A DNA stretch of 64,000 nt from an uncultured Candidatus Saccharibacteria bacterium. Lineage in GTDB: Bacteria > Patescibacteriota > Minisyncoccia > Phycocordibacterales > UBA9973. The stretch spans positions 193 through 64,192 of the forward strand of contig CAYXTA010000001.1 of NCBI GenBank assembly GCA_964468315.1, read 5' to 3'. Made by a program: the position numbers and the translations under genes. The notes under the pieces are model-generated. The model was not told the DNA's origin and searched no databases. It saw only the letters and a program-made list of their open reading frames with translations. Of the stretch, positions 14,499 through 31,270 are shown in pieces. Position 1 is the first letter of the stretch. The number at the start of each line of letters is the position of its first letter.

Positions 14499-14618
14499 AC
14501 ACTGGGGGAATTTATGGGATTTCACCTTATTTATAAAGACCGGACGGACTTCCGACTCCTTGCGAATTTCGCAGAAATTCGCTTTTGACCCGACCATTTT
14601 CGCCGACTTCTGTGGTTG
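14492..14618. repeat. inverted repeat A, right copy (127 bp)
   Basis: Matches 12955..13081 in inverted orientation. Contains the recombinase ATG and upstream region. Confidence 0.9.
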
Positions 14619-14882
14619 TGCGCTAATTATACGCTTTGCGCGAACTTTTTTCGAGAAGCAAAGTGATTAAGCGCATCCGTTGCGCTGAAGCGCCACCACG
14701 CCAAGCGTGGTGCTTTTCCTAAAAGGAAAAGACGGAAGCGCTTAGACCCAATGCGGACTCGGTTTTGCGAAAGCTATATTCTCTGGGATACGATTTTGCA
14801 AAACCTCGGCATATTCTTTTTTGAAATTCGGCAGGGTTTCGGTTTGGTTTGGCACGCAGGAGGGTCTGGGAGGAATGCGTGC
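14619..14882. repeat. inverted repeat B, left copy (about 264 bp, GC-rich)
   Basis: Reverse complement of 30958..31215 with a few mismatches. Begins gtgcgctaattatacg immediately after repeat A. Confidence 0.85.
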
Positions 14883-14920
14883 ACCTTTAATTTTGTACCC
14901 TGTTATATTTTAACATACCA

Positions 14921-14936
14921 TTGCGGTATACTGCAA
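14921..14936. promoter_or_regulatory. imperfect palindrome upstream of the HTH gene (candidate controller operator)
   Basis: ttgcggtatactgcaa is a near-palindrome centred on gtatac, about 20 bp upstream of the 14956 ATG. Confidence 0.3.
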
Positions 14937-14955
14937 CAAGGAGTAAACTCAATGT

Positions 14956-15162
14956 ATGAAAAGTGAGTCAAAAAAACTGGGAGGAAATCTAAAAACCATC
15001 CGAACTACAAAGGCAATATCACAAGGTGATATAGCGCGATCACTCGACGTTAGTCGAGGGTTTATTAGTAATATTGAAAATGGCAAAACCAACCCAACAC
15101 TTGAAACAATCGCAAGATTGGCAAAAGCTGTTGGTGTATCAACTAACGAGCTTTTGAAATAA
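14956..15162 (+). CDS. XRE-family HTH regulator (restriction-modification controller-like C protein)
   Basis: 68 aa. ISQGDIARSLDVSRGFISNIENGKTNPTLETIARLAKAVGVSTNELL is the canonical HTH_3/XRE fold. Lies immediately upstream of the restriction/helicase operon. Confidence 0.75.
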   Translation: MKSESKKLGGNLKTIRTTKAISQGDIARSLDVSRGFISNIENGKTNPTLETIARLAKAVGVSTNELLK

Positions 15163-15166
15163 TTGA

Positions 15167-18100
15167 ATGATAAAGAATTTCAACAATAAGACAGAAAAGG
15201 TTGGTGATGACCTAAAAAATACTATTAAAAAAGGCAGTAAACTTGATATTGCTGCTGCTATTTTTTCTATGTATGGATTTGAGAGCTTAAAAACTGAATT
15301 AAAAAATATTGATGAACTTCGTTTTATTTTCACTGATCCTACTTTTATTGAACTTGATAAAAGTAAGCGTCAAGAAAGAATGTTTGAAATTCTTGCAAAC
15401 AATAGAAAAAAAGCCATAGGAGGGTCTGATTTTGAAATAAATTTAAAGAACGAACTTAGAGGTAAATCTATTGCGAAAGAGTGCAAAAAATGGATTGAAG
15501 ATAAGGTAAAATTTAAAACAAATAGAGCTGGTGGATTCATCCAGCCTCAGTTTATTGTTCGTAATGAAGATGAATCAATTTTGTATAGTGGTATAAATGA
15601 ATTTAGTAGTTCTGGTGTGGGGTATGAAAAAGATAACTCTATTTTAAATATGGTAATGAAGTCTGATGATTATCAGACAACGCATGAGTATATTAAAAAT
15701 TTTGAAGAAGTATGGAATGACGAAAAATCATTAAAAGATGTTACTGATGAAGTCCTTGGTTATATTTCAAATATATATAAAGAGAATTCTCCTGAATTTA
15801 TTTATTACATAACACTCTATAATATTTTTGATGAATTTTTGGAAGATATAACAGAAGATGAATTGGCTAATGAAAAAACAGGGTTTAAAGAATCTGCTGT
15901 TTGGCATATGTTATACGATTTTCAAAAAGATGCTGTTTTGGGAGTTATTAATAAGCTTGAAAGACACAATGGTTGTATCTTGGCAGATAGTGTTGGATTA
16001 GGTAAGACTTTTTCTGCACTCGGTGTCATTAAATACTATCAAGAGAGAAATAAGAGTATTCTCGTTCTTTGTCCTAAAAAGCTCAGCGACAACTGGCAGA
16101 CTTTTCTTTCAAATTACGAAGACAATCAATTATATAAAGATAGATTTAATTACGATGTTTTATATCATACAGACCTTTCTCGCGATAAAGGGTTTTCAAA
16201 TGGTAAAGATCTTTCTCGTGTAAACTGGGGCAATTATGATTTGGTTGTAATCGACGAATCACATAACTTCAGAAATAATGATCCAAGAAAAGATAAGATA
16301 ACTCGATATCAGAAACTTTTAAATAATGTAATGAAAGCAGGAGTAAAAACAAAGGTCCTAATGCTCTCTGCTACTCCTGTAAATAATAAATTTACTGATT
16401 TAAAGAATCAAATAGCTTTGGCTTATGAGGGACATACAGATGTAGTTGATGATAAAATGGATATTACTAAATCAATTAATTCTATTTTAAATCAAGCACA
16501 AAGGACTTTTAATGACTGGTTAAAATTACCAGTAGAAGAACGTACTGGAACAAATCTTTTGTCTGAGTTGAATAAAAACTTCGACTTTTTTAAACTACTA
16601 GATAATATTACTATCTCAAGAAGTAGAAAACATATCATGAAGTATTATGATACTTCTGCTATTGGTAAATTCCCAAATAGATTAAAGCCTATTACTTATC
16701 GTTCGGATATTACTGATATAGAGGGATTTATGAAGGTAGATGAATTGTATGAACAATTGACCAGATTAAATATGGCCATGTATTCTCCTTTTGATTATAT
16801 TCTTCAAGATAAAATACAATTCTATAATGAAACTTATGATACTCAAATTTCAGGAAATTCGAGTTTAAAACAGTCTACTCGTGAAAAAAGTTTACAGAAA
16901 CTAGTGAAGATAAATTTTCTTAAAAGACTAGAGAGTTCTGTGGATTCATTTCGTATTACTTTGGAAAAATTTGTTAATGCAGTTGATGCAACTGTTAAAA
17001 GCATTGATGAGTTTGAAAAAACAGGAGTTAATAGTATTACAGAAGCTACCCAAATAAATGATTCTGGTTTTGATGAAGATGAGGAGAATGAAGATTGGCT
17101 TGATGATGAATTTAGTTTCGGTGGAAAAGTAAAAATAAACCTTGCGGATATGAATACTGCTGGTTGGAAGGAAGACTTACAATTTGACTATAAAATAGCA
17201 AAAGCAATTCTTGATGAAATGAAGCGTGTTACTCCAGAGCATGATTCTAAACTAAAAGATCTTCGAGATTTTATTACACATAAGATAAAAAATAATATAA
17301 ACCCAGATAATAGTAAAGTGGTAGTTTTTACAGCTTTTGCTGATACAGCAAATTATCTTTATGAAAATATATCTACTTGGGCTAAGGATACTCATGCACT
17401 AGAATCTGCTCGTATTACTGGTGGTGGAACCAATAAATGTACCCTCGATATAGATAGTCAATTTAATAACTTATTAATACATTTTTCACCACGATCAAAA
17501 GGTCGTCATGAAAAGTATAAGGACCACAAAGAAATCGATATTTTAATTGCTACTGATTGTATTTCAGAAGGTCAGAACCTTCAAGATTGTGATACTCTCG
17601 TAAACTACGATATTCACTGGAATCCTGTGCGTATAATCCAACGCTTTGGGCGTATTGACCGTATTGGATCTATTAATACTGATATACAGCTCGTAAACTT
17701 CTGGCCACAGATATCACTTGATGATTATATTAATCTTAAAAACCGCGTAGAGGGTCGTATGCTCCTTGTAGACATGACAGCAACTGGAGATGACAATGTG
17801 CTTACAAATCAATCTTCGGATATAGATTTTAGAAAACAACAATTAGAAAGACTTCAAAATGAAGTTGTGGATATTGAAGAAATGGATTCTGGTATTTCTA
17901 TTACAGATTTAGGACTAAACGACTTTCGTATGGATTTGGTGAATTACATTAAGTCTGGCCAAAATTTAGAAGGTTTAGCAAATGGTATGCATGCGGTATG
18001 CCCACAAGCACCAGAAAAAGGAGTAGAAAAAGGAGTTATCTTTGTATTAAAAAATATCAACAATGAAGTAAATATTGATAATACAAATCAACTTCATCCG

Positions 18101-18427
18101 TTTTATTTAGTATATATAAATGAGCAAGGGCAAGTTATTTCAAATCATCTTAATGTAAAAAATACTTTAGATATCTTACGTTCTATCGCTAAAGGTAAAG
18201 ACGAGCCTATTCCTGTAGTTTATGAATTATTTAACGACGAGACAGACGATGGTAAGAAGATGGATAAATATTCCAATCTTTTGAGTGAGTCTATACAATC
18301 AATCATCCATGTAAAAGATGAATCAGATGTAGATAGTTTATTTAGTGTTGGTGGTACTACTGCACTTATGAATAGTATAAAAGGTCTGGAAGATTTTGAA
18401 TTAATTAGCTTTATGGTTATTAAATAG
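15167..18427 (+). CDS. SNF2-family helicase/ATPase (SNF2_N + helicase C) with uncharacterised N- and C-terminal domains
   Basis: ILADSVGLGKTFSALGVI (motif I), VIDESHNFRN (motif II DEXH), LSATPVNN, and C-terminal ILIATDCISEGQNLQDC...HWNPVRIIQRFGRIDRIGS (motifs IV-VI). Confidence 0.85.
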   Translation: MIKNFNNKTEKVGDDLKNTIKKGSKLDIAAAIFSMYGFESLKTELKNIDELRFIFTDPTFIELDKSKRQERMFEILANNRKKAIGGSDFEINLKNELRGKSIAKECKKWIEDKVKFKTNRAGGFIQPQFIVRNEDESILYSGINEFSSSGVGYEKDNSILNMVMKSDDYQTTHEYIKNFEEVWNDEKSLKDVTDEVLGYISNIYKENSPEFIYYITLYNIFDEFLEDITEDELANEKTGFKESAVWHMLYDFQKDAVLGVINKLERHNGCILADSVGLGKTFSALGVIKYYQERNKSILVLCPKKLSDNWQTFLSNYEDNQLYKDRFNYDVLYHTDLSRDKGFSNGKDLSRVNWGNYDLVVIDESHNFRNNDPRKDKITRYQKLLNNVMKAGVKTKVLMLSATPVNNKFTDLKNQIALAYEGHTDVVDDKMDITKSINSILNQAQRTFNDWLKLPVEERTGTNLLSELNKNFDFFKLLDNITISRSRKHIMKYYDTSAIGKFPNRLKPITYRSDITDIEGFMKVDELYEQLTRLNMAMYSPFDYILQDKIQFYNETYDTQISGNSSLKQSTREKSLQKLVKINFLKRLESSVDSFRITLEKFVNAVDATVKSIDEFEKTGVNSITEATQINDSGFDEDEENEDWLDDEFSFGGKVKINLADMNTAGWKEDLQFDYKIAKAILDEMKRVTPEHDSKLKDLRDFITHKIKNNINPDNSKVVVFTAFADTANYLYENISTWAKDTHALESARITGGGTNKCTLDIDSQFNNLLIHFSPRSKGRHEKYKDHKEIDILIATDCISEGQNLQDCDTLVNYDIHWNPVRIIQRFGRIDRIGSINTDIQLVNFWPQISLDDYINLKNRVEGRMLLVDMTATGDDNVLTNQSSDIDFRKQQLERLQNEVVDIEEMDSGISITDLGLNDFRMDLVNYIKSGQNLEGLANGMHAVCPQAPEKGVEKGVIFVLKNINNEVNIDNTNQLHPFYLVYINEQGQVISNHLNVKNTLDILRSIAKGKDEPIPVVYELFNDETDDGKKMDKYSNLLSESIQSIIHVKDESDVDSLFSVGGTTALMNSIKGLEDFELISFMVIK

Positions 18428-18428
18428 C

Positions 18429-19046
18429 ATGAACTTCAATTTACCCCAGCAGGCATATTTACACAGATTTATACCAAAGAATAAATTCTCTGATAAAACT
18501 GAAGTTAATACAAAGCTAAAAAAAGAATTTACAGATCAAATACAGAAAATAATTTGGGAATATAAATTAGCTCCTAGTACTGTTGGTATATCTGCCACCG
18601 AAAAAGTTGAAGAAATTCAAATATTTGAAATTCAATTAAAGGAAAAAATAATACCTAAAAATGTATTAAAAATTATAGACAAAGCTATCCCGTATCCTAT
18701 TTTATATGTTTTTAAATACGAAGGACATTATGCTTATGGTATTACCTTAAAAGAAGATAACTCTCAGAGATATTACTTCTCAGAATGGGATGAGAAAAAG
18801 GAATTTAATTTCTTTGGTATCGACCTGGAACACGTGTACCAAGGCTTAGTTACCAGTTTTATTGGTATTCGCCAGAAGGGTCAAGATTTTGCTACAATAG
18901 TAAATACAGATAAACAAATAGAATCCTTAGAAAAAGAGATCAATGCTCTGAAAAACAAGGTCAAAAATGAAAAGCAATTCAACAGAAAAGTAGAGTTAAA
19001 TAAGGTATTAGCAGAAAAAAAGAAGTCGCTCAAGTCTATATTATAA
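18429..19046 (+). CDS. small uncharacterised protein, DUF4391-like (tentative)
   Basis: 205 aa with C-terminal coiled coil. AIPYPILYVFKYEG resembles, from memory, the conserved YPI motif of the DUF4391 family, which co-occurs with SNF2 helicases and methyltransferases. Not verifiable here. Confidence 0.4.
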   Translation: MNFNLPQQAYLHRFIPKNKFSDKTEVNTKLKKEFTDQIQKIIWEYKLAPSTVGISATEKVEEIQIFEIQLKEKIIPKNVLKIIDKAIPYPILYVFKYEGHYAYGITLKEDNSQRYYFSEWDEKKEFNFFGIDLEHVYQGLVTSFIGIRQKGQDFATIVNTDKQIESLEKEINALKNKVKNEKQFNRKVELNKVLAEKKKSLKSIL

Positions 19047-19067
19047 ATTATCAATAACATCATTATT

Positions 19068-21005
19068 ATGAAAAAACTAGCAATGCAAACACCAGACCTT
19101 ACAGAAGGTAATATTACAAAGATAAAAGAACTATTTCCTAATGTAATTACTGAAAAGGAAGGTCCTGATGGTGTTATTGAAAAGGCCGTAGACTTTGAGC
19201 TTCTGAAGCAGATACTTTCAAAAGAGCTAGTGGAAGATGATAATGAGCGTTATCGCCTCGACTGGCCTGGTAAAAAAGCTTCACTTTTGAAAGCGAATAC
19301 CCCTATTACTAGCACACTTCGTCCAGACAGAGAAAGTAGTGTTAATTTTGATACAACTGAAAATGTGTTCATAGAAGGCGATAACTTTGAAGTTTTAAAA
19401 GTCCTCCAGGAGTCATATTTAGGAAAGATAAAAATGTGCTACATTGACCCCCCATACAATACGGGAACTGCAATGATTTATAGTAATGATTTCAGTAAAA
19501 CAGAAGAAGAATATGATGAAGAAATGGGTGCGGTTGATGAAGAAGGTATCAAAATGTTCAAGAATACTGACAGTAACGGTCGCTTTCATAGTGATTGGCT
19601 TAGTATGATGTATGAAAGGATTGTTGTAGCTAGAGATTTGTTAACAAATGATGGTTTTATGGCATTGGCTATTGATCATAATGAGTTACATAATTTAATA
19701 TCAATTTGTGATGAAATTTTTGGTGAAAATAATAGAGTGGGAGTAATCACTGTAGTACATAAACCAGAAGGAAGAAATCAAGAGAAGTTTTTTGGAACAA
19801 GTAATGAATTTATGCTTGTTTATTCAAAAAATAAAGATGAAGCAAATTTTAATGATGTTGTTTTAGATGATTCCCTTGCTGAGTTATTTGACTCAAACGA
19901 TGAAAGAGGAAAGTTTAAATTAAAGAATTTTATTAGATTGTCGGATGGTAAATATAGTTTGAGAGTTAATAAACCACATTTTTATTATCCTGTTTATGTT
20001 AATGGTGACTTTACAGAAATTTCACTAAGTCAAAAGGATGGATTTATCGCAGTCTATCCAATAACTCAGGCTGGGCAAGAGAGAACATGGAAAACTACAC
20101 CAGAAACATTAGTAGATAGATTTAATAAAGGTGATTTAATATTTACAAAAAATAAGGATAATGAGATAGAGCTTTTTGAGAAACTTAGAGAAAATCAAGT
20201 TATTAAAACACACTGGATTGATAAAAAATATCACGGTTATCATTTTGGTACAAAAATCATTGATTCACTATTGGGAGATAAAACATTTGATTTTCCAAAG
20301 TCATTATTTTTAATGAAGGATGTTTTAAAAATGATGGCATCAGGTGATGATATTATCTTAGATTTTTTTGCTGGATCAGGTACAACAGCACATGCTACTA
20401 TTCAGTTAAATGTAGAAGATGGCGAAAATAGAAAATTTATTATGGTTCAAATTCCAGAAAAAACAGAGAGTGATTCTGATGCATACAAAGCGGGTTATAA
20501 AACTATTTCAGAAATTAGTATGGAGCGTATACGTAGGGCAGGCAAAAAGATTGTAGAGGAAAATGCAGAAAAATTAAAAGAAAGAGAAACACCGTTAGAT
20601 ATTGGATTCCGTGTGTATAAGACTGATACAACAAACATGAAAGATGTTTACTATCATCCGTCTGCCGTCAACCAGGATGATTTGTTTAATCACGTTAGTA
20701 ATATAAAAAATGACAGAACACCAGAGGATTTGCTCACTCAGGTAATTCTTAACCTTGGGCTAACCTTAGACCTCCCAATAGAAAAGAAAAATATAAAAGG
20801 TAATGATGTTTATTTTGTCGCAGGTAATGCACTCGTTGCTTGTTTTGATGACAAGATTGATTTTGGGATCGTGGAAGAAATAGCAAAGTCTGAGCCGTTA
20901 AAAGTCGTATTCAAAGATGCAAGCTTTAAGGAAGAACAAGATAGAACAAATGTCGAAACAAAATTCAAGAGGTTGTCTCCGGAAACAATAATCACTGTAT
21001 TGTAA
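19068..21005 (+). CDS. Type III-like DNA methyltransferase (Mod; beta-class N6-adenine/N4-cytosine methyltransferase)
   Basis: CYIDPPYNTG (motif IV DPPY) lies N-terminal to ILDFFAGSGTTAHA (motif I FxGxG). This order is the beta-class permutation typical of Type III Mod. Confidence 0.85.
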   Translation: MKKLAMQTPDLTEGNITKIKELFPNVITEKEGPDGVIEKAVDFELLKQILSKELVEDDNERYRLDWPGKKASLLKANTPITSTLRPDRESSVNFDTTENVFIEGDNFEVLKVLQESYLGKIKMCYIDPPYNTGTAMIYSNDFSKTEEEYDEEMGAVDEEGIKMFKNTDSNGRFHSDWLSMMYERIVVARDLLTNDGFMALAIDHNELHNLISICDEIFGENNRVGVITVVHKPEGRNQEKFFGTSNEFMLVYSKNKDEANFNDVVLDDSLAELFDSNDERGKFKLKNFIRLSDGKYSLRVNKPHFYYPVYVNGDFTEISLSQKDGFIAVYPITQAGQERTWKTTPETLVDRFNKGDLIFTKNKDNEIELFEKLRENQVIKTHWIDKKYHGYHFGTKIIDSLLGDKTFDFPKSLFLMKDVLKMMASGDDIILDFFAGSGTTAHATIQLNVEDGENRKFIMVQIPEKTESDSDAYKAGYKTISEISMERIRRAGKKIVEENAEKLKERETPLDIGFRVYKTDTTNMKDVYYHPSAVNQDDLFNHVSNIKNDRTPEDLLTQVILNLGLTLDLPIEKKNIKGNDVYFVAGNALVACFDDKIDFGIVEEIAKSEPLKVVFKDASFKEEQDRTNVETKFKRLSPETIITVL

Positions 21006-21012
21006 TATTTAT

Positions 21013-24000
21013 ATGAAATTACAGTTTAAACAGCAACAATATCAAGCAGATGCCACAAATGCAGTGGTGCGGGTTTTTGATGGTCAAGAAAAAGGGGTTA
21101 GGAAGGAAGTGGTGGGAAGAGTTAAAGCAAATGATTTGTTTCAGAAGACTATGGTAGAAGAAATTTTTTCAAATAAAAAACTTGATATTGATGAAAAACA
21201 AATACTTACTAATGTGCAAGAACTCCAAAAAGAACAAGGAATAAAAGTTGGTAAAAAATTAGAGGGTTTAAATTTTACCGTAGAAATGGAAACAGGTACT
21301 GGTAAGACGTATGTTTACACCAAAACAATGTTTGAGCTAAATAAAGAGTATGGCTGGAATAAGTTCATAATTATGGTCCCCTCTGTTGCTATTCGTGAAG
21401 GAGTGAATAAGTCCATGGAAATAACGGCAGATCATTTTCAGGAAATATATGGTAAAAAAATAAGATTCTTTATTTATGATACAAAGAATAAGACAAATCT
21501 AACTAATATAAAATCTTTTGCAAATACATCGAATATTGAAGTGATAATAATGAATTATCAAGCTTTCGGACGAACAAGTAAAGATGCCTTGAAAATGTTC
21601 CAAAAGCTTGATGAGATGCAGTCAGAAAAGCCTATTGATGTTATCAAGCGTGCCCGCCCAATATTGATTATCGATGAGCCACAACGTTTTGGTCAAACAG
21701 CACAATCAATGCTTCCTGAATTTAACCCACTTTTTATTACTCGATATTCTGCAACACATAAAGAGGATTACAATAAAATATATCGTCTTGATGCTATTGA
21801 TGCATACAACCAAAAACTAGTTAAAAAAATAAGAGTAAAAGGGATAGAAGTAAAAGGTAATTCTGGTACGAATAGTTACTTATTCCTAGATAGAATACAT
21901 GTAAGTAGTAATGCATACCCTACCGCTACTGTGCAGATGGAGATAGAAACAAAACAATCTGGTGGAATTAAGAAGACTTTAAAGAAAATTAAGGAGGGAG
22001 ATAATTTATTTGCTGTCTCTGGTGAATTGGCTCAATACGAAGGATATCTTGTAAAAGAAATTAATGCACGTACGAATACCGTTTCTTTTACCAATGGGAT
22101 TTCAATATCAGTCGGTCAAGTCCATGGAGATGTAGATGAGCTACACATACGAACAATTCAAATACGTGAAGCAATAGCATCACATATAGAAAAAGAAAGA
22201 GAACTCTATACCAAGGGAATTAAGGTCCTCACCTTATTCTTTATTGATGAGGTTGCAAAGTATCGTGCTTACGATGATAAAGGAAAACAAATACGCTCAG
22301 AGTATGAGGAAATATTTGAATATGAATACAAACAGGCCATATCACAAAGAGATTTGTTTAATGATGAATATTATAAATACCTAGATTCTTTTGATGTATC
22401 AAAGGTTCATAATGGATATTTTTCTGTTGACAATAAAGGGAGAGCAGTAAATTCTAAAGAAACTCGAGGTCAGGATGGTAGTGACGATGTAAATGCATAT
22501 GATCTTATTATGAAAAATAAGGAACAATTACTGAGCTTCAAAGAGCCGACTCGTTTTATTTTTTCTCACTCAGCACTTCGTGAAGGATGGGATAATCCAA
22601 ATATTTTTCAAATATGCACACTAAAGCATAGTGAATCTACAATAAGTAAACGTCAAGAAATAGGCCGTGGACTTCGTATTGCTGTAAATGATCAAGGAGA
22701 AAGAATGGATCATAGTGTTCTTGAGAATGAATTTTTTGATATCAATACATTGACTGTTATTGCAAGTGAATCATATGATACTTTTTCAAAGCAATTACAA
22801 GGCGAAATTTTAGACACATTATCTGATCGCCCAAGTAGCCTAGAAGTTGGTGTATTCAAAGACAGGATTCTAAAAAATAAAGACGGAGAGACTTTTGTTT
22901 TTGACGATAAACATACTATGGATTTAATATTTATGTTTAAGGAAAAGGGTTATGTTGATAGTGATTACAAAATTACAGAAAAACTAATAGAGGCTATTGA
23001 TTCAGATACAGTTGAAATACCTGTAGTTCTTGTAAATTTTAAAACAGAATTGGTAAATATGATTCAAAAAGTGCACGCAACAAATACCTTTAAATCTTCA
23101 GAAGATGATCGTGCTAATAATGTAAAAGTATCTATTTTAAAACCTAATGAAAACTTCTTCAAACAGGAGTTTAAGGATTTATGGAATAAGATAAAAATAA
23201 AGACAGTATATGATGTTTCTTTTGATGGTAAAGAACTAATTGAAAAAAGTATCAAAAGTATCGATGCTACGCTAGATGTAAATAAAGCTACTGTTAGAGT
23301 TACTATTGGTGAGCAAAAAGACAATATAACAGAAGAATTATTAAAAAGTGGTGAGTCTATTTCAAAAACAAGTAATCAAATAGAGAAAACTGAAAGTATT
23401 TTAGGTTCAATTAAATATGACATTATAGCTGAAGTCGCAAAGGGTGCAAATATAACAAGAAAAACATCAGGTGAGATTCTTGGTAAAATGAACAAAATCA
23501 AATTTGCTTTGTTCAAGGTGAATCCCGAGCATTTTATTCGTGAGGTTGTTCGTCATATTAATGAACAAAAAGCAGCAACTCTTATAAATAATATAACTTA
23601 CCACAAGCTCGACAGTGTATATGAAGATGACATTTTTACTGTAAATAATTTCCAAGGAGCACTTGATAATAATGTTCTAAAAGTAAACAAGCATATTTAT
23701 GAATACGTGAAGACTGATTCTAAAATAGAACGTAAATTTGCAGAAGAAATGGATCTCGAAGGTAGTAAAGTCCTTATATACGCAAAATTACCTAACGGCT
23801 TTAAGATTCCTACTCCAATAGGTAATTATAATCCGGACTGGGCTATTGTATTTGATAGTAAGGATATTAAATATATCTATTTCATCGCTGAAACAAAAGG
23901 TAGTATGAGTACACTACAACTAAAAGGATCTGAATTACAAAAAATAAATTATGCTAGAAAACATTTTGAAGCATTGTCGTGTGCTGATTTGAAATACGAT

Positions 24001-24045
24001 GTTGTAGATAGTTACGAGAGTTTAATGGAAAAAGTAATGAGGTAA
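21013..24045 (+). CDS. Type III restriction enzyme Res subunit (helicase-nuclease)
   Basis: METGTGKTYV (Walker A), ILIIDEPQRF (DEAH-like), FIFSHSALREGWDNPNIFQIC (helicase motif VI region), and a long C-terminal domain. About 1000 aa, as for Res. Confidence 0.85.
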   Translation: MKLQFKQQQYQADATNAVVRVFDGQEKGVRKEVVGRVKANDLFQKTMVEEIFSNKKLDIDEKQILTNVQELQKEQGIKVGKKLEGLNFTVEMETGTGKTYVYTKTMFELNKEYGWNKFIIMVPSVAIREGVNKSMEITADHFQEIYGKKIRFFIYDTKNKTNLTNIKSFANTSNIEVIIMNYQAFGRTSKDALKMFQKLDEMQSEKPIDVIKRARPILIIDEPQRFGQTAQSMLPEFNPLFITRYSATHKEDYNKIYRLDAIDAYNQKLVKKIRVKGIEVKGNSGTNSYLFLDRIHVSSNAYPTATVQMEIETKQSGGIKKTLKKIKEGDNLFAVSGELAQYEGYLVKEINARTNTVSFTNGISISVGQVHGDVDELHIRTIQIREAIASHIEKERELYTKGIKVLTLFFIDEVAKYRAYDDKGKQIRSEYEEIFEYEYKQAISQRDLFNDEYYKYLDSFDVSKVHNGYFSVDNKGRAVNSKETRGQDGSDDVNAYDLIMKNKEQLLSFKEPTRFIFSHSALREGWDNPNIFQICTLKHSESTISKRQEIGRGLRIAVNDQGERMDHSVLENEFFDINTLTVIASESYDTFSKQLQGEILDTLSDRPSSLEVGVFKDRILKNKDGETFVFDDKHTMDLIFMFKEKGYVDSDYKITEKLIEAIDSDTVEIPVVLVNFKTELVNMIQKVHATNTFKSSEDDRANNVKVSILKPNENFFKQEFKDLWNKIKIKTVYDVSFDGKELIEKSIKSIDATLDVNKATVRVTIGEQKDNITEELLKSGESISKTSNQIEKTESILGSIKYDIIAEVAKGANITRKTSGEILGKMNKIKFALFKVNPEHFIREVVRHINEQKAATLINNITYHKLDSVYEDDIFTVNNFQGALDNNVLKVNKHIYEYVKTDSKIERKFAEEMDLEGSKVLIYAKLPNGFKIPTPIGNYNPDWAIVFDSKDIKYIYFIAETKGSMSTLQLKGSELQKINYARKHFEALSCADLKYDVVDSYESLMEKVMR

Positions 24046-24059
24046 AAATTAAATAAATT

Positions 24060-25208
24060 ATGGTAGGAAAAAATAAAAAACTAAATAAAATTTTACCAGA
24101 TAATCTTAAAAAAGAAGAGGAACGTCCTAAATGGACAGATATGAATGATGTTCTTAAGGTCTATAAGTATTACAGTAAACAGTATAGTTGGATGCATCTT
24201 GTTGTTGCTCAGAATAAATTTTCAAAGAAAAAATATCTTCGTCTAAAAAAATATTTCAATTGGTTTGCCATTCCTGATGCTGGTTATTTGGCAGTACTTC
24301 AGAATATTTTAAAAAAGGGAGCTCAAGAGCTTGAGTGGAAATATAAAAATGATTTAGAAGTAAAACTTGAAGAAGTAACAGATAAAAAAGAAAAAAGGGA
24401 TATATTAAAATCAAATAAATCGAGTGGAATTCCAGAAGAAATACTTGAATTTATACAGAAATTTCCTGACTTTACAAAAAAACTTATTTCACTTGATTTA
24501 GAAAACAAGAAATTAGAAGAAATACTTGAAGTTATGAATATGACTGCTGATGCTATTTCTGTTTCTGGTGATCGTTTTCGAATAGCATTTCAGGAGTTGC
24601 TTGGAAAGATTTCTAAAGAAGAACCTAAAAGTATGATGGAATTATCTGATTTAATGGAAAAATATAATTTGAATCAACTTACTTCACTTTTAAATATAGT
24701 AAAATCACGACTACAAACCATTGAAACATTTGAGCAAATGATTCACAACGATAAAACTTATGAAATCAGAGGCGATAAATCTGTACATCGTGTATTAGAA
24801 AATAGTATGTGGCTAGTCGATGATAAATACTGGATTGTGTCTTCGAATAAATCTCTTCGTGATTTTATTGGTGTAGGTATGGAAAAAGAGGATAAAAAAT
24901 ATAAAAGCAAAAGACCTGATTTTGTTTGTGTAGATCATGATAATAAAATAATAATATTGGAAATTAAAAGACCTTCAGTCGAATTAAAAAAAGAAGAAAT
25001 AGATCAAGCTGTTTTATATTTACGAATGATAAAAAAATATCACTCACAGAAAAAACCAGTCGAAGTCTACTTAATAGGTAATACAATTTCAGAAGAAGCG
25101 AGAGATATAGCAGAACTAATGCCAACAATAAAATTACAAACATACCAGGAATTTTTAGAAAAATGTAGAGCCAGATATAAGCAATATTTAAATATAGTAG
25201 AAGTTTAA
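24060..25208 (+). CDS. hypothetical protein with C-terminal PD-(D/E)xK nuclease-like core
   Basis: RPDFVCVDHDNKIIILEIKRP gives PD-x13-ExK. N-terminal 250 aa unassigned. Confidence 0.4.
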   Translation: MVGKNKKLNKILPDNLKKEEERPKWTDMNDVLKVYKYYSKQYSWMHLVVAQNKFSKKKYLRLKKYFNWFAIPDAGYLAVLQNILKKGAQELEWKYKNDLEVKLEEVTDKKEKRDILKSNKSSGIPEEILEFIQKFPDFTKKLISLDLENKKLEEILEVMNMTADAISVSGDRFRIAFQELLGKISKEEPKSMMELSDLMEKYNLNQLTSLLNIVKSRLQTIETFEQMIHNDKTYEIRGDKSVHRVLENSMWLVDDKYWIVSSNKSLRDFIGVGMEKEDKKYKSKRPDFVCVDHDNKIIILEIKRPSVELKKEEIDQAVLYLRMIKKYHSQKKPVEVYLIGNTISEEARDIAELMPTIKLQTYQEFLEKCRARYKQYLNIVEV

Positions 25209-25212
25209 TTTT

Positions 25213-26718
25213 ATGAAATTAATTTCTAAATCAAAATTCTTAGACTATCTAACTTGCCCTAAAGATGCATGGTTTAGAATGCATAAGCCAGAATTGAAAG
25301 AATTTGAAATTTCTTCTGGGCTACAAAACACATTTGACCAAGGTTATGAAGCTGAAGAATATGCAAAACAATTAAAAGTATTTTCTGGATTTATAGAAGT
25401 CACAGCTAAAGGAGTTGATGTAAAAAAAGAAGTTGACTCATTAATAGAGAAAAAGGTTCCAGCCATTTATCAGCCGACATTTATTGCAGATGGATTTATT
25501 ATTCGTTGCGATATGCTCGTCTGGGATTCAGAATCTTCTAAATGGGATTTGTATGAAATAAAATCATCAACAAAAAGACATGATACAGGGGCTCGAGATC
25601 ATCTGTCTGATGCAGCTTTTCAGGCAATAGTTTTGGAACGCTATGGAATCTCGGTTGGTAAAATATTTATTGTTCATCTAAATAGTGAATATATAAAAAA
25701 TGGAGAAGTAGACATTGAAAATCTTTTTGTGCTAAATGATAGCACTTCTAAGGTTACAGCAAGAAGAGTTACCGTAGCTCCAGAAATGGAAGAAGCCAAA
25801 AAGTATCTTAATCAAGAAACTGAACCAAAGAATGGTTGCGATTGCATATATCGCGGTCGTAGTAGTCATTGTGCAACAACACACATTTCATACCCTAGTA
25901 TTCCTGAGTACTCTGTTCATGATCTTTCATACATTGGAAAGAGTCCTGATAAATTGAGAAGTTTAATAGAGAAAGGGATATATCACATACATGATATTGA
26001 AGATGCTTCTAATTTGACTGACAAGCAACAAAATCAAGTAATGGTGCATAAATCAGATACTGAAATGATAGACAAGGAAGAGATTGAGAATGTTCTGAAT
26101 AGCTATACCTACCCTTTATATTTCTTTGATTATGAGACTTATGCCCCAGCTATACCTATCTATGATGGGTTTTTCCCATATCAAAGAATTCCAATTCAGT
26201 TCTCTTTACATGTTATTGATAAAAAAGGTGGAGAAGTACGCCATGTGGAATATTTACAAACTGAAAATATAGATCCGTCGGAAACCGTGGCAAAAATGTT
26301 AAGTGAGAATATAGAACCAGAAGGAACAATTCTCGCATGGAATGTTGGTTTTGAAAAAAGTGTGACTACCGAACTTGCCTTACGGTTGCCAAAGTACAAG
26401 AATGTTTTAACTAGAATATGCGACCAAATGCAAGACTTAATGGATATATTTTCCAATCAACATTATGTACATAAAGGTTTTAAAGGTAGAGTAGCCATTG
26501 AACCAGTAATGAATACACTACTTCCTGAAATGACATATGACCACTTACCTTACACAGGAGCAGATGTTGGGTATGTATGGTGGAGTGATATAGTTAATGA
26601 AGGTAAAGAACCAAAAACAAGAGATGAAAAATTACATTTACTTTTGGAGTATTGTAAACAAGATACTTTTGTTATGGTGGAAATTTTCAGGATACTTAAT
26701 GAGATTATCAAGAAGTAA
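25213..26718 (+). CDS. RecB/Cas4-like PD-(D/E)xK nuclease fused to DEDD-like exonuclease domain (DUF2779-like, tentative)
   Basis: N-terminal C15 plus CDCx8C Cys cluster. DGFIIRCDM...LYEIK (D...ExK). YFFDYETYAP resembles exonuclease motif I; compare FVDIETTGL in the DnaQ-like ORF at 54715. Confidence 0.45.
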   Translation: MKLISKSKFLDYLTCPKDAWFRMHKPELKEFEISSGLQNTFDQGYEAEEYAKQLKVFSGFIEVTAKGVDVKKEVDSLIEKKVPAIYQPTFIADGFIIRCDMLVWDSESSKWDLYEIKSSTKRHDTGARDHLSDAAFQAIVLERYGISVGKIFIVHLNSEYIKNGEVDIENLFVLNDSTSKVTARRVTVAPEMEEAKKYLNQETEPKNGCDCIYRGRSSHCATTHISYPSIPEYSVHDLSYIGKSPDKLRSLIEKGIYHIHDIEDASNLTDKQQNQVMVHKSDTEMIDKEEIENVLNSYTYPLYFFDYETYAPAIPIYDGFFPYQRIPIQFSLHVIDKKGGEVRHVEYLQTENIDPSETVAKMLSENIEPEGTILAWNVGFEKSVTTELALRLPKYKNVLTRICDQMQDLMDIFSNQHYVHKGFKGRVAIEPVMNTLLPEMTYDHLPYTGADVGYVWWSDIVNEGKEPKTRDEKLHLLLEYCKQDTFVMVEIFRILNEIIKK

Positions 26719-26719
26719 T

Positions 26720-26851
26720 ATGGACGAAGAAACATTTGAAATAGCAAAAGAAAATGATTTAAGTCTTGAGGAAGCTGAAGAACTTCGGGACTTTGCTGAC
26801 GAGAATGACATTGAAGTAGATGATGCTTTAGAAATTTGGCAAGATTTATAA
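26720..26851 (+). CDS. small acidic protein (43 aa)
   Basis: MDEETFEIAKENDLSLEEAEELRDFADENDIEVDDALEIWQDL. Track ORF 26597.. overlaps the upstream gene; ATG 26720 follows its stop. Confidence 0.3.
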   Translation: MDEETFEIAKENDLSLEEAEELRDFADENDIEVDDALEIWQDL

Positions 26852-27118
26852 AAAGATGCTATAATATAAGTGTTACAGAAGTAACACTTAGTCTATGAGT
26901 TTATATAGACCATACGAGGTTCCCTTGAATGGGTAGGTGAATTGGGAAATCTGCGAGGATCCAAATACCTTATATGACTGATTGCCAAAGGCGGTTGGGA
27001 GATTTCATTAAGATTGTCGAATCTTGATCAAAACTCTTAGTCGCTTTTTTCTTTGCCTAGTCAGCAGATCAAAGCTCTCAGGGTATTATTAAATTAAAAA
27101 TAATAATATAATAAAAAT

Positions 27119-28000
27119 ATGATATACACAAATAAAATACAAAAAGCTATAGAACTCGCAATACAAACTCACGAGATAGATGATAAACAAAAAAGGAAAG
27201 GCAAAGATATACCGTACATTACGCACCCGCTTTCTGTAGGGCTTATACTCGCTACAGCAGGGGGTACAGAGGATGTGATAGTCGCTGGTATACTCCACGA
27301 TACTATTGAAGATAGTACAGTTGAAAAGAAAATCACAAAGGAAATGATTGCCGAGCAATTTGGTGATAATGTAATGCAATTAGTCCTAAGTGTTACAGAA
27401 CAAAATAAATCCTTGTCCTGGGAAGAAAGAAAAGCCGAAGCGCTTGAGCATATAAAAACATTTTCACACGATTCACTGCTATTAAAGTCTGCAGACATAA
27501 TTTCAAATACAACAGAACTTATTTCTGATTACCAAATAGAGAGAGAAGAAACTTTTGATAGGTTCAATGCCCCAAAAGAAAGAATTTTAAAAGGTTATAC
27601 TGATTCTATAAATGCTATCTTGTATAAATGGTCAGAGAGTCCTCTTGCTGAGGATCTAAAAAATGTATTAGGAGAAATAAAAAGTATGACAGAAAGTAAA
27701 GAAGAAGTTGAATTTTATCTAAATTCAGAAGAATTAAAAGAAAGGCGTATTGTGTACGTTGCTTGTGAAGATGAAGAGAATTGTGGTTTTATTGTGGAAT
27801 TCAAATTTCCTAATTGTACTTTTTTCTTCTGTAAAGAACACAAAATGGGATTTAATATTGATTTAAATACTGTTACTGATGATGGCGTTTTGTGTAAACA
27901 GCATAATGAAATGGAGCGCTACAATGTCTTGACAGAAGATAATGTTTGCCCAGTATGCGAAAAGAATACCCTTGCAATACTTTCTGCTAGAATTAACTAA
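27119..28000 (+). CDS. HD-domain phosphohydrolase, RelA/SpoT-type (p)ppGpp hydrolase-like (SAH) with C-terminal Cys-rich zinc ribbon
   Basis: YITHPLSVGLILATAGGTEDVIVAGILHDTIED (HD motif with the His-Asp pair). C-terminal CxxC...CPVC. Confidence 0.7.
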   Translation: MIYTNKIQKAIELAIQTHEIDDKQKRKGKDIPYITHPLSVGLILATAGGTEDVIVAGILHDTIEDSTVEKKITKEMIAEQFGDNVMQLVLSVTEQNKSLSWEERKAEALEHIKTFSHDSLLLKSADIISNTTELISDYQIEREETFDRFNAPKERILKGYTDSINAILYKWSESPLAEDLKNVLGEIKSMTESKEEVEFYLNSEELKERRIVYVACEDEENCGFIVEFKFPNCTFFFCKEHKMGFNIDLNTVTDDGVLCKQHNEMERYNVLTEDNVCPVCEKNTLAILSARIN

Positions 28001-28047
28001 AAAATTAAAAATTTGGCAGGATCTATAAAAAGGTCTATGATAGGGGT

Positions 28048-28938
28048 ATGGAAGGACTAACATTTAAAGAAAAAATTATATTGGAAAAAACAAACAAATT
28101 CTTAAAAAAACACAAGCCGTCTTTTGTATTGACTGCTATTGTTATATTGAGTGTTTTAATCGGCAATGCCATCTATTTTTCTATTTGGCCGTCTGACGAT
28201 AAGACCCTTTTAAGTTCTTTGACTGATATTGAGAATGACAACTGCTCTGTAGTAGGTATTAATTTACATGGAACTTTACTAACATATATTGCACCTCATT
28301 CTGAAAGTGACCCCCTTTTTAATTATGATTCCGTAGCTAGTGAAGATATATATTTTAAAATTAAACAAGCAAATGAAGATGAAAGTATAAAAGCAATTAT
28401 ACTGGAAGTTGACTCTGGTGGAGGGTCTGGAATTGCTGGTGAAGAGGTTTCAAATATTATTAAAAATAGTGCTAAACCTGTCGTAGGATGGATAAGAAGT
28501 GTAAGTGCGTCGGCGTCGTATTTTGCTGTAAGTAGTGCTGATAGGATATTTGCCTCAAAATTTTCTGATGTTGGAGGAATAGGTGTGACCGCTTCTTATT
28601 TAAGTAATGTAAAAAAGAATCAAAAAGATGGCTTAAATTACGAGCAATTGATTGCAGGTAAATATAAAGATTCAGGAAGACCTGATAAGCCACTTACAGA
28701 AGAAGAAAAGAAATTATTTTTGAGAGATATAAATATTGGGTATGAGAACTTTATGAAAGCTGTTTCCGCGAATCGTAATATACCAATTGAAAAAGTTAGA
28801 GAAATTGCTGATGGTTCAACAGTGATGGGAGAGCAAGCAAAGGAACTTGGTTTGATTGACGAGATTGGTGGAATTAATGAGGTTGAAAAGTATCTTGAGG
28901 AAACAATCGGAGAAAAGCCAGAGATTTGTTGGAAGTAA
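28048..28938 (+). CDS. sppA: signal peptide peptidase SppA-like serine protease
   Basis: N-terminal TM. IKAIILEVDSGGGS...ASYFAVSSADRIFA resembles the SppA/ClpP-fold catalytic region. Confidence 0.7.
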   Translation: MEGLTFKEKIILEKTNKFLKKHKPSFVLTAIVILSVLIGNAIYFSIWPSDDKTLLSSLTDIENDNCSVVGINLHGTLLTYIAPHSESDPLFNYDSVASEDIYFKIKQANEDESIKAIILEVDSGGGSGIAGEEVSNIIKNSAKPVVGWIRSVSASASYFAVSSADRIFASKFSDVGGIGVTASYLSNVKKNQKDGLNYEQLIAGKYKDSGRPDKPLTEEEKKLFLRDINIGYENFMKAVSANRNIPIEKVREIADGSTVMGEQAKELGLIDEIGGINEVEKYLEETIGEKPEICWK

Positions 28939-28960
28939 TTTAATAATATAATATTTAACT

Positions 28961-29413
28961 ATGAAAAATAACCGTAACAGCGTATTAACAGGAGTAACTG
29001 GCGAATATTATGTAGCCGCAGAACTTTCTCGTATGGGATATATTGCTTCTATCACTCTCAGAAATACTAAAGGGGTAGATATTCTGTGTTCAAACTCTGA
29101 CGCGACGAAAACTGTTAGTATACAAGTAAAGACTGGATCAGAAGTTAAGAGCACTTGGATTCTAAGTGAAAAGTCAGAAAAATATTATGCACAAAAACTT
29201 TTTTATGTGTTCGTAACTTTGAGTAAAAATTTACACCCAGAGTATTCTATCGTACCAAGTAAAATCGTTGCTGATTTCATAACTAAAAATCACAAAAATT
29301 ACCTAGGTTCTCTTAGTAAAAAGGGCAAAGAGCATAAAGATAGCTCTATGAGAAAGTTTATTGATTTGGAGAAAAAGTATTTAAATAGGTGGGACTTATT
29401 AGGTCTTAACTAG
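28961..29413 (+). CDS. hypothetical protein, restriction-endonuclease-like fold (tentative)
   Basis: EYYVAAELSRMGY...GVDILC...IQVKT shows an E / D / QxK spacing reminiscent of PD-(D/E)xK. Confidence 0.35.
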   Translation: MKNNRNSVLTGVTGEYYVAAELSRMGYIASITLRNTKGVDILCSNSDATKTVSIQVKTGSEVKSTWILSEKSEKYYAQKLFYVFVTLSKNLHPEYSIVPSKIVADFITKNHKNYLGSLSKKGKEHKDSSMRKFIDLEKKYLNRWDLLGLN

Positions 29414-29500
29414 GTAGGTATGGGTATTATACCACAATTTAATCTAAAATGCAAGTATTTTTTACCATACAAATTAAGCTCTTTTTGATATAATCCATAT

Positions 29501-30073
29501 ATGGCAGATGAAATAGACACTAATACCCAAACGCCTCAAACTGAGCCTCTAGAGGTGCCAAAATTGGCACCAGAAGCAACTTCTGAAGCTCAAACGGCTC
29601 AAATACCATCAAGTGAGCCGTTGGCTACTGAACCCGAGCTAATTGCAACACCAGAAGTAACGTCTGAACCTTTGCAAACTTCTGGCGAGGTAAAAGCCGA
29701 GCCAGAGAAAGAAGAAACGGAAATCCCTGAATCAAAACACGAAGATCAAACTTCTTCACAATCTGAGACTCAATCCCAACCCACTACTCCACCACAGGAG
29801 GCAACGCCTCCTGTGGTAATAATCCCTCCTGTAAATAAAATTCGTGAACTTCTTGCGAAAGCCAGAAATGCAATTCAATTTAGAAAAAGAAAGAAACTAG
29901 AAAAAATCATGAACATGTTCACGAAGCGAACAAATGTAACTAACGACGAAGTTGAGAAACTTTTGCATGTCTCTGATGCCACTGCAACAAGATATCTCAC
30001 TATCCTCAAGAAAGAAAACAAGATTAAACAATCTGGAAAAACAGGGAAAGGAGTTTCGTATTCTAAGATTTAA
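29501..30073 (+). CDS. Pro/Thr/Glu-rich low-complexity protein with C-terminal winged-helix
   Basis: N-terminal 110 aa acidic PT-rich. C-terminal VEKLLHVSDATATRYLTILKKENKIKQSGKTGKGVSY is HTH-like. Confidence 0.4.
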   Translation: MADEIDTNTQTPQTEPLEVPKLAPEATSEAQTAQIPSSEPLATEPELIATPEVTSEPLQTSGEVKAEPEKEETEIPESKHEDQTSSQSETQSQPTTPPQEATPPVVIIPPVNKIRELLAKARNAIQFRKRKKLEKIMNMFTKRTNVTNDEVEKLLHVSDATATRYLTILKKENKIKQSGKTGKGVSYSKI

Positions 30074-30284
30074 CCAAATTTTTTTGAATCAAAAAATGCA
30101 ACCTTAACGCTGTGGAAAAATAGTAAAGATATGGATTTATGATAACCTTGTTGTATTCATATTGAGTTATCTTTAACTTTACGCTATCAACTTGATAATA
30201 ATACTGACCATTGTCTTCAATAGCTTCTGCAAAATATTTAAAATTATTTCCTAACAAACAAATCTTTAGTGTAACTACTTTCAT
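30063..30284 (-). CDS. hypothetical small protein
   Basis: 73-aa ORF with no supporting features. Confidence 0.2.
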   Translation of the reverse strand: MKVVTLKICLLGNNFKYFAEAIEDNGQYYYQVDSVKLKITQYEYNKVIINPYLYYFSTALRLHFLIQKNLVKS

Positions 30285-30489
30285 AAAATAAAAAATTCCT
30301 TAAATAATAAGGAAAGGTTTTTTGCGTGGACTAGACACAAACTTATCTTTCCCATATGGGTTGGATTTAGCACCTTGCATTTGTAGGTTGCTGGATGGAT
30401 TACTGAGCCAATTCTCTAACCACCACTCTTGATATAAACTATTAAGTTGTAATTTAATTCTATCAATAAAAAAGAATAAGAGCAAATTT

Positions 30490-31215
30490 TATAGGGAGCA
30501 GAAGTTGCCTACGCGCACGGGTGGGTGGAGTGTGTGCGTACTCGCACACACTCGGGGCAAGTATTTGCATTTGCACCTCGGGCATTTCCGCTATGTGCGT
30601 CCATGGCTGACGGATGAGCGCCGACCCTATATTGCAATACTAAAGGTAAATAGCGAAGCGACACACTAACATCTAATCTGATAAAGCGTAGAGTGGGGGT
30701 GGCGAGGGTGGACCGCTGTATTCAGCGACACCCGACCCGGGGAGAGGAAACTTCCTCTCCCCGAGAAGCGCGGGCAATCTACTAAACGGCTCATCCTCTG
30801 GTATTTGAGCCGTTTAACTATCTGGTTTGCCCGCTCATAGGCATGTAGGCGTGAGTAGCCATAGCGGAAATGCCCGAGGCGGATGCCGAGGGTGATACCT
30901 ACCGACAGACAGGACAACACATCGAGAAAGGAACGAGGTACAATATTGAATTTGTATTTTTGAGTTATGCCCGCATTCCTCCCAGACCCTCCTGCGTGCC
31001 AAACCAAACCGAAACCCCGCCGAATTTCAAAAAAGAATATGCCGAGGTTTTGCGAAATCGTATCCCAGAGAATATAGCTTTCGCAAAACCGAGTCCGCAT
31101 TGGGTCTAAGCGCTTCCGTCTTTTCCTTTTAGGAAAAGCACCACGCTTGGCGTGGTGGCGCTTCAGCGCAACGGATGCGCTTAATCACTTTGCTTCTCGA
31201 AAAAAGTTCGCGCAA
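30490..31215 (-). ncRNA. GC-rich structured element (candidate large ncRNA or ORF-less mobile RNA element); contains inverted repeat B right copy
   Basis: About 725 nt and clearly GC-richer than its surroundings. Many hairpins (for example ggggagaggaa actt cctctcccc, and gagtgtgtgcg tact cgcacacactc). A 20-nt long-range pairing joins 30574-30593 and 30863-30882. ORFs in it (30666..31100 minus, 30870..31109 plus) have foreign composition. Strand uncertain. Confidence 0.35.
30958..31215. repeat. inverted repeat B, right copy
   Basis: Reverse complement of 14619..14882. Ends ...taattagcgcacaa at the island/chromosome junction. Confidence 0.85.
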
Positions 31216-31270
31216 AGCGTATAATTAGCGCACAAATTTATATATAATAACTTAAAAAATTAAGTACTTT

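Follow-up and report, generated by a model that had tools for sequence, protein, structure and literature searches.

Shedu is a bacterial nuclease family that is strongly linked to mobile elements; 602 of 5,499 Shedu genes in one survey lay inside restriction-modification (R-M) systems, and the nearest structural relative of Shedu is NucS/EndoMS (10.1101/2023.08.10.552793). For the enzyme R.HgiDII, the C-terminal domain could not, in 2008, be assigned to any fold (PMC2441816). A third group, DUF2779, was placed among the 3'-5' exonucleases by Majorek et al. (2014), with a DUF83-like PD-(D/E)xK partner; it is family F.17 in this RNase H-like classification (PMC3985635). In 2026, the quasi-essential protein MMSYN1_0389 of JCVI-syn3.0 was described as a fusion of Cas4-like and DEDDy nucleases, its role being unknown (PMC13621843). 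Here, we describe a locus in which relatives of these proteins adjoin each other. The locus is part of a 64,000 nucleotide (nt) stretch of contig CAYXTA010000001.1, hereafter the window. Three open reading frames (ORFs) on the + strand are of concern. ORF1 (24060..25208; 382 amino acids, aa) encodes a predicted solitary PD-(D/E)xK endonuclease that is Shedu-like and BbrUII/HgiDII-like. ORF2 (25213..26718; 501 aa) encodes a dual nuclease of the DUF2779 family. The third gene, acid43 (ATG at 26720; 26720..26851), encodes a 43-aa acidic microprotein and closes the transcription unit. An earlier note on this DNA, which gave the correct positions and strand for all three ORFs, proposed that ORF1 and ORF2 were a two-gene nuclease module. 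Our data indicate that the three genes are probably independently distributed units, lying side by side, rather than a dedicated module.

The families to which the genes belong hold at least 113 (ORF1), 723 (ORF2) and 96 (acid43) protein clusters. Hence, the three genes are not chance ORFs. We examined gene neighbourhoods in two sets of loci, each comprising the best 80 matches per search; many of the contigs are short and so the resulting frequencies are rough. There was no ORF1 relative near DUF2779 in any of 76 non-redundant DUF2779 loci, taken from species-representative genomes and look-ups. Similarly, we retrieved 80 ORF1-family loci from metagenomes and none contained a DUF2779 gene. 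The proposed module thus did not survive the co-occurrence check. The order of Res, ORF1 and ORF2 was found elsewhere only at L179, a contig of 2.7 kb with 97% DNA identity to the window and, therefore, the same strain. The closest DUF2779 relative, at L007, is 94% identical in protein sequence and 89% identical in DNA sequence. Homology between L007 and the window is confined to positions 25199-26719, which correspond to ORF2 plus 14 nt. At L007, the DUF2779 gene follows a GmrSD Type IV enzyme and the flanks differ on both sides.

If ORF1 and ORF2 were a dedicated two-gene nuclease defence system, possibly regulated by the acidic peptide, then the gaps of 4 nt and 1 nt between the genes, and the absence of terminators, would be as expected. 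The same gene order in a second assembly (L179) would also fit, as would the solo Cas4-like PDDEXK_1 gene found three genes downstream of an ORF1 homologue at L129. However, the pairing is missing from all 76 DUF2779 loci and all 80 ORF1-family loci, L179 is the same strain, DNA homology with L007 breaks off precisely where the DUF2779 ORF begins and ends, and each gene has other recurring partners. The idea of a two-gene system is largely refuted by these neighbourhood data, and we regard it as highly improbable.

ORF2 is a DUF2779 protein, as the earlier note had suggested. The match to PF11074 spans aa 303-426 and, at 131.2 bits (E = 3.5e-38), is far above the cut-off of 23.3. The N-terminal region (25213..25905, + strand) is a Cas4/EXO5/AddB-like PD-(D/E)xK domain that includes C15, C209, C211, C220, D100, E115-x-K117 and Q137. 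A DnaQ-like DEDDy 3'-5' exonuclease domain, with D306, E308, N377..E381, Y480 and D484, forms the C-terminal region (26104..26718, + strand). In an alignment of the family, C15 and C209-x-C211-x8-C220 are invariant or nearly so; D100, E115-x-K117, D306-x-E308 and Y480-x3-D484 are invariant. An ExoII-like motif, WNxxFE, is located at residues 376-381. On the strength of its cysteine pattern, the N-terminal half probably carries a 4Fe-4S cluster.

The AlphaFold model of ORF2 contains both nuclease folds (mean pLDDT 93.9; pTM 0.88). Foldseek matched the N-terminal half to Cas4 (7mi4, 4r5q), human EXO5, MGME1, RecE and the nuclease domain of AddB. The C-terminal half was matched to a DnaQ domain (8h2f) and to 3'hExo (1zbu). 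Thus, the Cas4/AddB-like half with its Cys and CxCx8C cluster and D...ExK site, and the DEDD exonuclease half, are both as they had been read from the sequence. This two-nuclease architecture is already published, and a sequence and profile search of the PDB returned no solved structure for any DUF2779 member. The best of several weak Cas4 matches was to a PADLOC Cas4 model (6.4e-7). There was no CRISPR array in the 64-kb window and there were no cas genes among nine profile-scanned ORFs of the island region. With no such setting, we rejected ORF2 as a CRISPR Cas4. We also rejected ORF2 as a part of AddB or RecBCD; it has no helicase domain and the similarity to AddB is a fold match to the nuclease domain only.

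The neighbours of DUF2779 genes differ on the two sides. Among 144 proteins encoded by the two genes upstream, Pfam identified ResIII (8), AAA_11/AAA_12 (4), MTES_1575 (3), SWI2_SNF2 (2), AAA_13 (2) and GmrSD (1), alongside thioredoxin/DsbA, sigma-70 and FolD. The two genes downstream (145 proteins) are mainly housekeeping, namely sigma-70, RNase T/ExoX, DAG kinase and S49 peptidase, with N6_Mtase accounting for only 2. An R-M or helicase-nuclease gene is found no more than four genes upstream, on the same strand, at 19 of the 76 DUF2779 loci, and the gaps are mostly very short. In a neighbour-joining tree, members of the clade that includes ORF2 are R-M-linked in 7 of 8 cases, each with another R-M type, compared with 12 of 72 elsewhere. 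On Campylobacterota plasmids, a large AAA ATPase gene precedes DUF2779. Other observations point away from a defence link. Distant DUF2779 relatives keep synteny with the window (Dus-DnaX...DUF2779), several retain the downstream SppA gene, the HD gene, or both, and the family did not appear in phage records. The earlier note had reasoned that placement in housekeeping families with a conserved context would speak against a defence module. For ORF2, this is partly the case; most DUF2779 relatives do have housekeeping surroundings, but about a quarter end R-M or helicase-nuclease operons. In our reading, DUF2779 processes DNA ends in general, and restriction-type operons often recruit it or lie next to it.

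A different interpretation is that DUF2779 proteins of the window's clade are not general housekeeping enzymes but dedicated accessory exonucleases of R-M and helicase-nuclease systems. They would degrade DNA after restriction, a clean-up similar to that by RecBCD, and the genomes concerned may lack RecBCD/AddAB. The 7 of 8 clade members that come last in unrelated R-M operons (Type III, Type IV GmrSD, IIG/Eco57I, and ResIII with a methyltransferase) argue for this, as do the strong asymmetry between upstream and downstream neighbours and the matching layout on Campylobacterota plasmids. That the window and L007 share the ORF only, as a gene-sized mosaic, is also consistent. Conversely, 57 of the 76 loci have no defence neighbour, the Dus-DnaX and SppA/HD synteny is common across clades, JCVI-syn3.0 has a distant family member that is quasi-essential (PMC13621843) and phage-defence models give only weak Cas4 matches (PADLOC). 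On balance, we consider a dedicated accessory role somewhat unlikely. A 150-aa protein (28961-29413 in the window), with a GxxGE...D...QVK pattern, is possibly a small PD-(D/E)xK nuclease. A homologue at L009 (7393-7899; 32% identity) lies between an R-M methyltransferase and DUF2779.

ORF1 contains RPDFVCVDHDNKIIILEIKRP, a PD-x13-ExK core. In a family alignment with 47 homologues, D287, E301, K303, E235 and Q316xxxY320 are invariant; the core that the earlier note had picked out is therefore real. These residues fall within the nuclease domain (aa 231-382; 24750..25208, + strand). The AlphaFold model (mean pLDDT 81) comprises a beta/alpha domain (approximately aa 25-90), a helical linker (approximately 126-228) and an intact PD-(D/E)xK nuclease fold (approximately 231-381). 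Top Foldseek matches to the nuclease domain were NucS/EndoMS. The N-termini of ORF1 relatives differ, and some contain a Zn-ribbon. ORF1 reached no curated family threshold, with HSDR_N_2, HSDR_N and NucS_C as weak matches. Among the 47 relatives, weak matches were to HSDR_N_2 (42), HSDR_N (28), NucS_C (25) and SduA_C (19). A fold search of BFVD with ORF1 gave only generic Mrr-like and restriction-endonuclease folds. Searches of PDB sequences with ORF1, ORF2 and both family profiles gave nothing useful beyond a weak EndoMS match, and neither ORF1 nor ORF2 matched any of 50,697 phage records.

Three named families were considered as homes for ORF1. The first was Shedu. ORF1 did not match DUF4263/SduA_C at E values up to 0.1, and the 19 relatives that did match SduA_C did so weakly (best 1.3e-4). 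Each of the PADLOC SduA models matched one or two relatives, at E 0.0017 or weaker, and did not match ORF1. No Shedu structure was among the PDB matches to ORF1 in sequence and Foldseek searches. Being below the DUF4263/SduA thresholds, ORF1 was rejected as Shedu/SduA (DUF4263, PF14082). Of the Shedu-like, DUF4263-type system suggested earlier, the architecture and context hold but the family assignment does not. Hence, ORF1 looks like Shedu in design, by analogy, without being a member of the family by the available models.

The nearest named relative of ORF1 by sequence is the C-terminal module of BbrUII/HgiDII. Residues 177-378 of ORF1 align with positions 426-643 of the NCBIfam profile NF050001 (BbrUII/HgiDII) at 4e-11. 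The match involves the C-terminal module only, and its 42 bits fall far below the cut-off of 550. Hence, ORF1 was rejected as a BbrUII/HgiDII enzyme; the GHKL half is also absent. An exhaustive search with an ORF1-family profile, against a representative library of 1.84 billion proteins, identified 1,906 representatives at E<=1e-3, 856 of them at E<=1e-10, GHKL-fused relatives included. The GHKL-fused relatives are proteins of 600-660 aa in which an ORF1-like linker and nuclease follow a GHKL ATPase, and they score 210-400 bits with NF050001. P0449 and P0463 are examples with the ORF1-homologous linker and nuclease. These relationships indicate that the C-terminal domain of HgiDII-type GHKL enzymes is a NucS-like PD-(D/E)xK nuclease. 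The third family considered was NucS. The NucS_C match of ORF1 is 17.8 bits, with a threshold of 24 (Pfam), and the NCBIfam NucS model gives 17 bits rather than 216. Both are below threshold and so ORF1 was rejected as NucS.

We next consider the neighbours of ORF1-family genes. Among 91 neighbouring proteins of at least 180 aa, from 47 loci, large serine recombinases were found 9 times, N6_Mtase and ResIII 5 times each and Eco57I 4 times. HsdM, HsdR, HsdS, Type ISP and TdeIII also occur. At individual loci, ORF1-family genes sit between or beside hsd genes, or beside Type ISP/IIG enzymes. An arrangement of recombinase (- strand), XRE-type helix-turn-helix (HTH) gene (+ strand) and ORF1-like gene (+ strand) recurs at L183, L131, L153, L133 and L126. 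The HTH proteins at these loci have up to 67% identity to that of the window, and the third-best ORF1 homologue (69%) is at L183. The HTH and ORF1-like genes are separated by 4-8 nt at L183, L131 and L133, and by approximately 300 nt at L126 and L153. Given the order at these five loci, the conserved partners of ORF1 are the recombinase and HTH regulator, not DUF2779. In the window, a 9-kb SNF2-DUF4391-Mod-Res block separates the HTH gene from ORF1. It looks as if an HTH-nuclease cassette took up this block here or, alternatively, the block was lost from the other loci. A separate observation concerns large AAA_11/AAA_12 helicases that end in a MTES_1575 nuclease. An ORF1-family gene is directly downstream of such a helicase gene at L139, and three genes on at L001. 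At L028, L034 and L042, helicases of this type adjoin DUF2779 directly upstream. One protein of this set (L001, L139, L028, L034, L042) also contains DUF4011.

The acid43 gene encodes a real and conserved microprotein. Nineteen of the 43 residues are acidic and 2 are basic, giving an isoelectric point of 4.05; the peptide is thus as acidic as first described. Its family comprises 96 clusters, with 61-100% identity, nearly all of exactly 43 aa. No family or structure match was found with Pfam, PADLOC or NCBIfam. In all 5 distinct contexts examined, acid43 closes a string of variable R-M or nuclease genes and housekeeping genes follow. At L184, the genes upstream encode an Eco57I/MmeI-type enzyme, a 219-aa protein, a solo Cas4-like PDDEXK_1 protein and a DUF2726/MTES_1575 nuclease; downstream are a S-adenosylmethionine (SAM) riboswitch and then metK. 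The order at L188 is HsdR, T5orf172, HNH, a 241-aa protein and acid43, followed by a S49 peptidase. At L016, a 238-aa gene lies between DUF2779 and acid43. We also noted LOOT RNA genes (RF03000) a few kb from acid43 at L184 (8025-8156, - strand) and L188 (9582-9705, + strand), where the contexts are unrelated.

It had been suggested that the peptide is an antitoxin, or a DNA mimic, that restrains the nucleases encoded upstream. The excess of acidic residues (19 of 43) is consistent with this, as is the position of acid43 after R-M or nuclease genes in 5 of 5 contexts, usually with a gap of 1-2 nt. However, the gene immediately upstream is another one in each context, encoding DUF2779, the DUF2726/MTES_1575 nuclease, or the 241-aa or 238-aa protein. 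The 96 clusters are conserved at 61-100% identity while the upstream gene varies, which makes a role as a specific antitoxin unlikely and argues against a specific toxin partner. We therefore consider restraint of the upstream nucleases improbable. Instead, acid43 may have a general role, or may merely be the first conserved gene beside a hotspot. A broader proposal is that a distinct Patescibacteria DUF2779 clade provides a generic plug-in exonuclease, as the final enzyme gene, to many types of R-M and helicase-nuclease system. The exonuclease would complete the destruction of DNA cut by these systems, or resect it, with acid43 at the end of the operons as a general regulator, for example a DNA mimic. 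This we think unlikely. If true, the restriction systems of small-genome bacteria would have an accessory layer in common, made up of the DUF2779 clade and acid43.

A large serine recombinase gene (12939..14597, - strand) adjoins tRNA-Phe (12885-12958) and is flanked by 131-nt inverted repeats. Recombinase homologues are also found near 10 ORF1-family loci and 13 DUF2779 loci, in the latter case within approximately 10 kb of DUF2779. In the window, inverted repeat arms of 268 nt (99% identity; left arm 14616..14883, right arm 30968..31235) bracket a 16-kb block that extends from the HTH gene to a 190-aa gene and has ORF1, ORF2 and acid43 inside. The arms are part of a longer sequence of 393 nt, which is intact at 14491-14883. 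The reverse complement of this sequence is split, with one part beside tRNA-Phe (12955-13085) and the other 16 kb downstream (30968-31235). Joining position 31235 to 12955, to form a circle of 12955..31235, would restore the reverse complement of the 393-nt copy. The split repeat could result from inversion or excision, or could be an assembly artefact. Related sequence follows the ORF1 relatives at L131 and L103.

These features raise the possibility that ORF2 and acid43 are resident genes, upstream of which the R-M genes and ORF1 were inserted as cargo of the serine recombinase. The adjacency of ORF1 and ORF2 would then be purely positional. The presence of the recombinase beside tRNA-Phe would fit with such a hotspot, as would the ORF1 relatives that come right after a recombinase and HTH gene at L183, L131 and L133, and the recombinase homologues no more than approximately 10 kb from DUF2779 at 13 loci. 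In addition, the ORF1 relatives at L103 and L131 precede sequences whose counterparts in the window are 5 kb more distant, and acid43 is followed by SppA or metK in a conserved manner while the genes upstream are variable. Other observations are less easily reconciled. In several unrelated contexts, variable and conserved genes are only 1-4 nt apart, which would be odd for site-specific insertion, and our search of the window for a direct repeat of the tRNA-Phe 3' end, which might mark the island border, found none. The flanks of DUF2779 at L007 differ on both sides and, at L184 and L188, acid43 has no adjoining DUF2779, so DUF2779 itself behaves as variable. The case for DUF2779 as a fixed anchor of the hotspot is weakened accordingly. 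Insertion of cargo beside resident genes is thus possible, though doubtful. In the window, a SAM riboswitch (30340-30438, - strand) is followed by neither metK nor any obvious SAM-related gene, which suggests rearrangement. The homologous riboswitch at L184 (5162-5275) is directly after acid43 and before metK.

Five + strand genes precede ORF1. The operon starts with the XRE-type HTH gene (14956..15162), identified with Pfam. The genes that follow (15167..24045; Pfam and PADLOC) encode a HKD+SNF2 helicase (15167-18427; PADLOC candidate C3a139, 1.9e-133), a DUF4391 protein, Type III Mod and Type III Res (21013-24045). The helicase and DUF4391 genes (15167-19046) are ahead of Mod and Res in what is a single operon. 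Intergenic gaps are 14 nt (Res and ORF1), 4 nt (ORF1 and ORF2) and 1 nt (ORF2 and acid43), in keeping with the short spacing and the defence setting that had been noted. We found no terminator-like site on the + strand between Res and acid43. The top promoter-like site of a 13.6-kb stretch, TTGGCA-18-TG-TATAAT (26836..26865, + strand), begins inside the 3' end of acid43, and expression of the HD gene downstream would be driven from it. At L184, a similar TGCTATAAT is positioned after acid43. Because the gaps are short, there is no terminator-like site, and a promoter-like site occurs at the end of acid43, we conclude that the R-M transcription unit probably ends with ORF1, ORF2 and acid43. The co-transcription with Mod and Res proposed in the earlier note is, therefore, probable. 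Between acid43 and the HD-domain gene is a 267-nt non-coding stretch (26852-27118) that opens with a strong promoter-like site and a hairpin. It is partly kept upstream of the HD gene at L049 (72% over 113 nt) and could be a leader or regulatory RNA. A search of Rfam found no family in this spacer or in the inverted repeats. The window has a GC content of approximately 32% and the homologues are chiefly from assemblies of Patescibacteria (the candidate phyla radiation, CPR). The host genome is Patescibacteria-like and the genes are in a variable defence region.

We propose the following model. Our data show the folds and motifs, the absence of pairing among the three genes and the make-up of their neighbourhoods; enzyme activities, and any cooperation between the three genes, are what we infer. 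ORF1 would be a solitary PD-(D/E)xK endonuclease that cuts DNA in a metal-dependent manner, with a core of the NucS/EndoMS type, as modelled, preceded by a putative N-terminal sensor domain and a helical linker. Its family recurs with a large serine recombinase and XRE-type HTH regulator, often inside R-M operons. By analogy with Shedu, ORF1 would most likely be an autonomous immune nuclease, with the N-terminal part controlling cleavage of foreign DNA, and would complement the adjoining R-M system. ORF2, which has no helicase of its own, would most likely process DNA ends from both polarities. It would degrade or resect ends generated by restriction enzymes and helicase-nucleases, and would also act in general repair. 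Such general end processing would explain why the DUF2779 gene is common in housekeeping contexts and is also frequently the last gene of R-M or helicase operons. The microprotein is found where variable defence genes give way to housekeeping genes.

Some of our observations, the roughness of the locus frequencies among them, count against this model of independent units. The tight spacing and lack of terminators mean that the three genes are co-expressed here, and local cooperation is possible. The enrichment of R-M genes upstream of DUF2779 equally fits a dedicated accessory role or an insertion hotspot beside a resident gene. Finally, ORF1 misses the DUF4263 thresholds and the Shedu analogy therefore rests on fold, architecture and context.

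If the three genes are treated as independently distributed, a chance juxtaposition will not enter the record as a new two-gene defence system. There are also leads, the best being the link between one DUF2779 clade and R-M genes, and the microprotein at the boundary. The first is a clue, from genomic context, to a family that is widespread and quasi-essential in a minimal cell but has no known function. The second is a conserved microprotein that marks the edges of defence islands in Patescibacteria. ORF1 offers two more, namely a candidate Shedu-like solitary nuclease family missed by current Shedu models, and a likely NucS-like PD-(D/E)xK nuclease as the fold of the HgiDII-type C-terminal domain, previously without an assignment.

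Compared with known systems, ORF1 and Shedu are alike in layout: the N-terminal domain varies, a linker follows, and the C-terminal part is a PD-(D/E)xK nuclease that is nearest to NucS/EndoMS structures. Both are single genes, found within R-M operons and near mobile elements. They differ in that ORF1 has no SduA_C match and is not recognised by PADLOC SduA models. With BbrUII/HgiDII, ORF1 shares a linker and nuclease homologous to the C-terminal module of those enzymes, but not the N-terminal GHKL (MutL/Hsp90-like) ATPase half. With NucS/EndoMS, the top structural matches, ORF1 has E, D, ExK and QxxxY motifs in common. However, no NucS N-terminal domain was detected, the structural alignment covers the C-terminal domain only, and ORF1 sits in a defence island rather than a repair setting. 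ORF2 resembles Cas4, EXO5, MGME1 and AddB in fold, D...ExK site and four-Cys arrangement; it differs by the addition of a DEDDy exonuclease domain and by having no helicase partner domain. Like MMSYN1_0389 and other DUF2779 proteins, ORF2 joins a Cas4/DUF83-like PD-(D/E)xK half to a DEDDy exonuclease half. The Mycoplasma protein has two cluster cysteines whereas ORF2 has four (PMC13621843), and ORF2 is shorter (501 aa). The clade to which ORF2 belongs is also nearly always R-M-linked, a context not described in PMC3985635 or PMC13621843. Taken together, the ORF1 family is Shedu-like and without a name, and ORF2 is typical of DUF2779, a family already known though uncharacterised.

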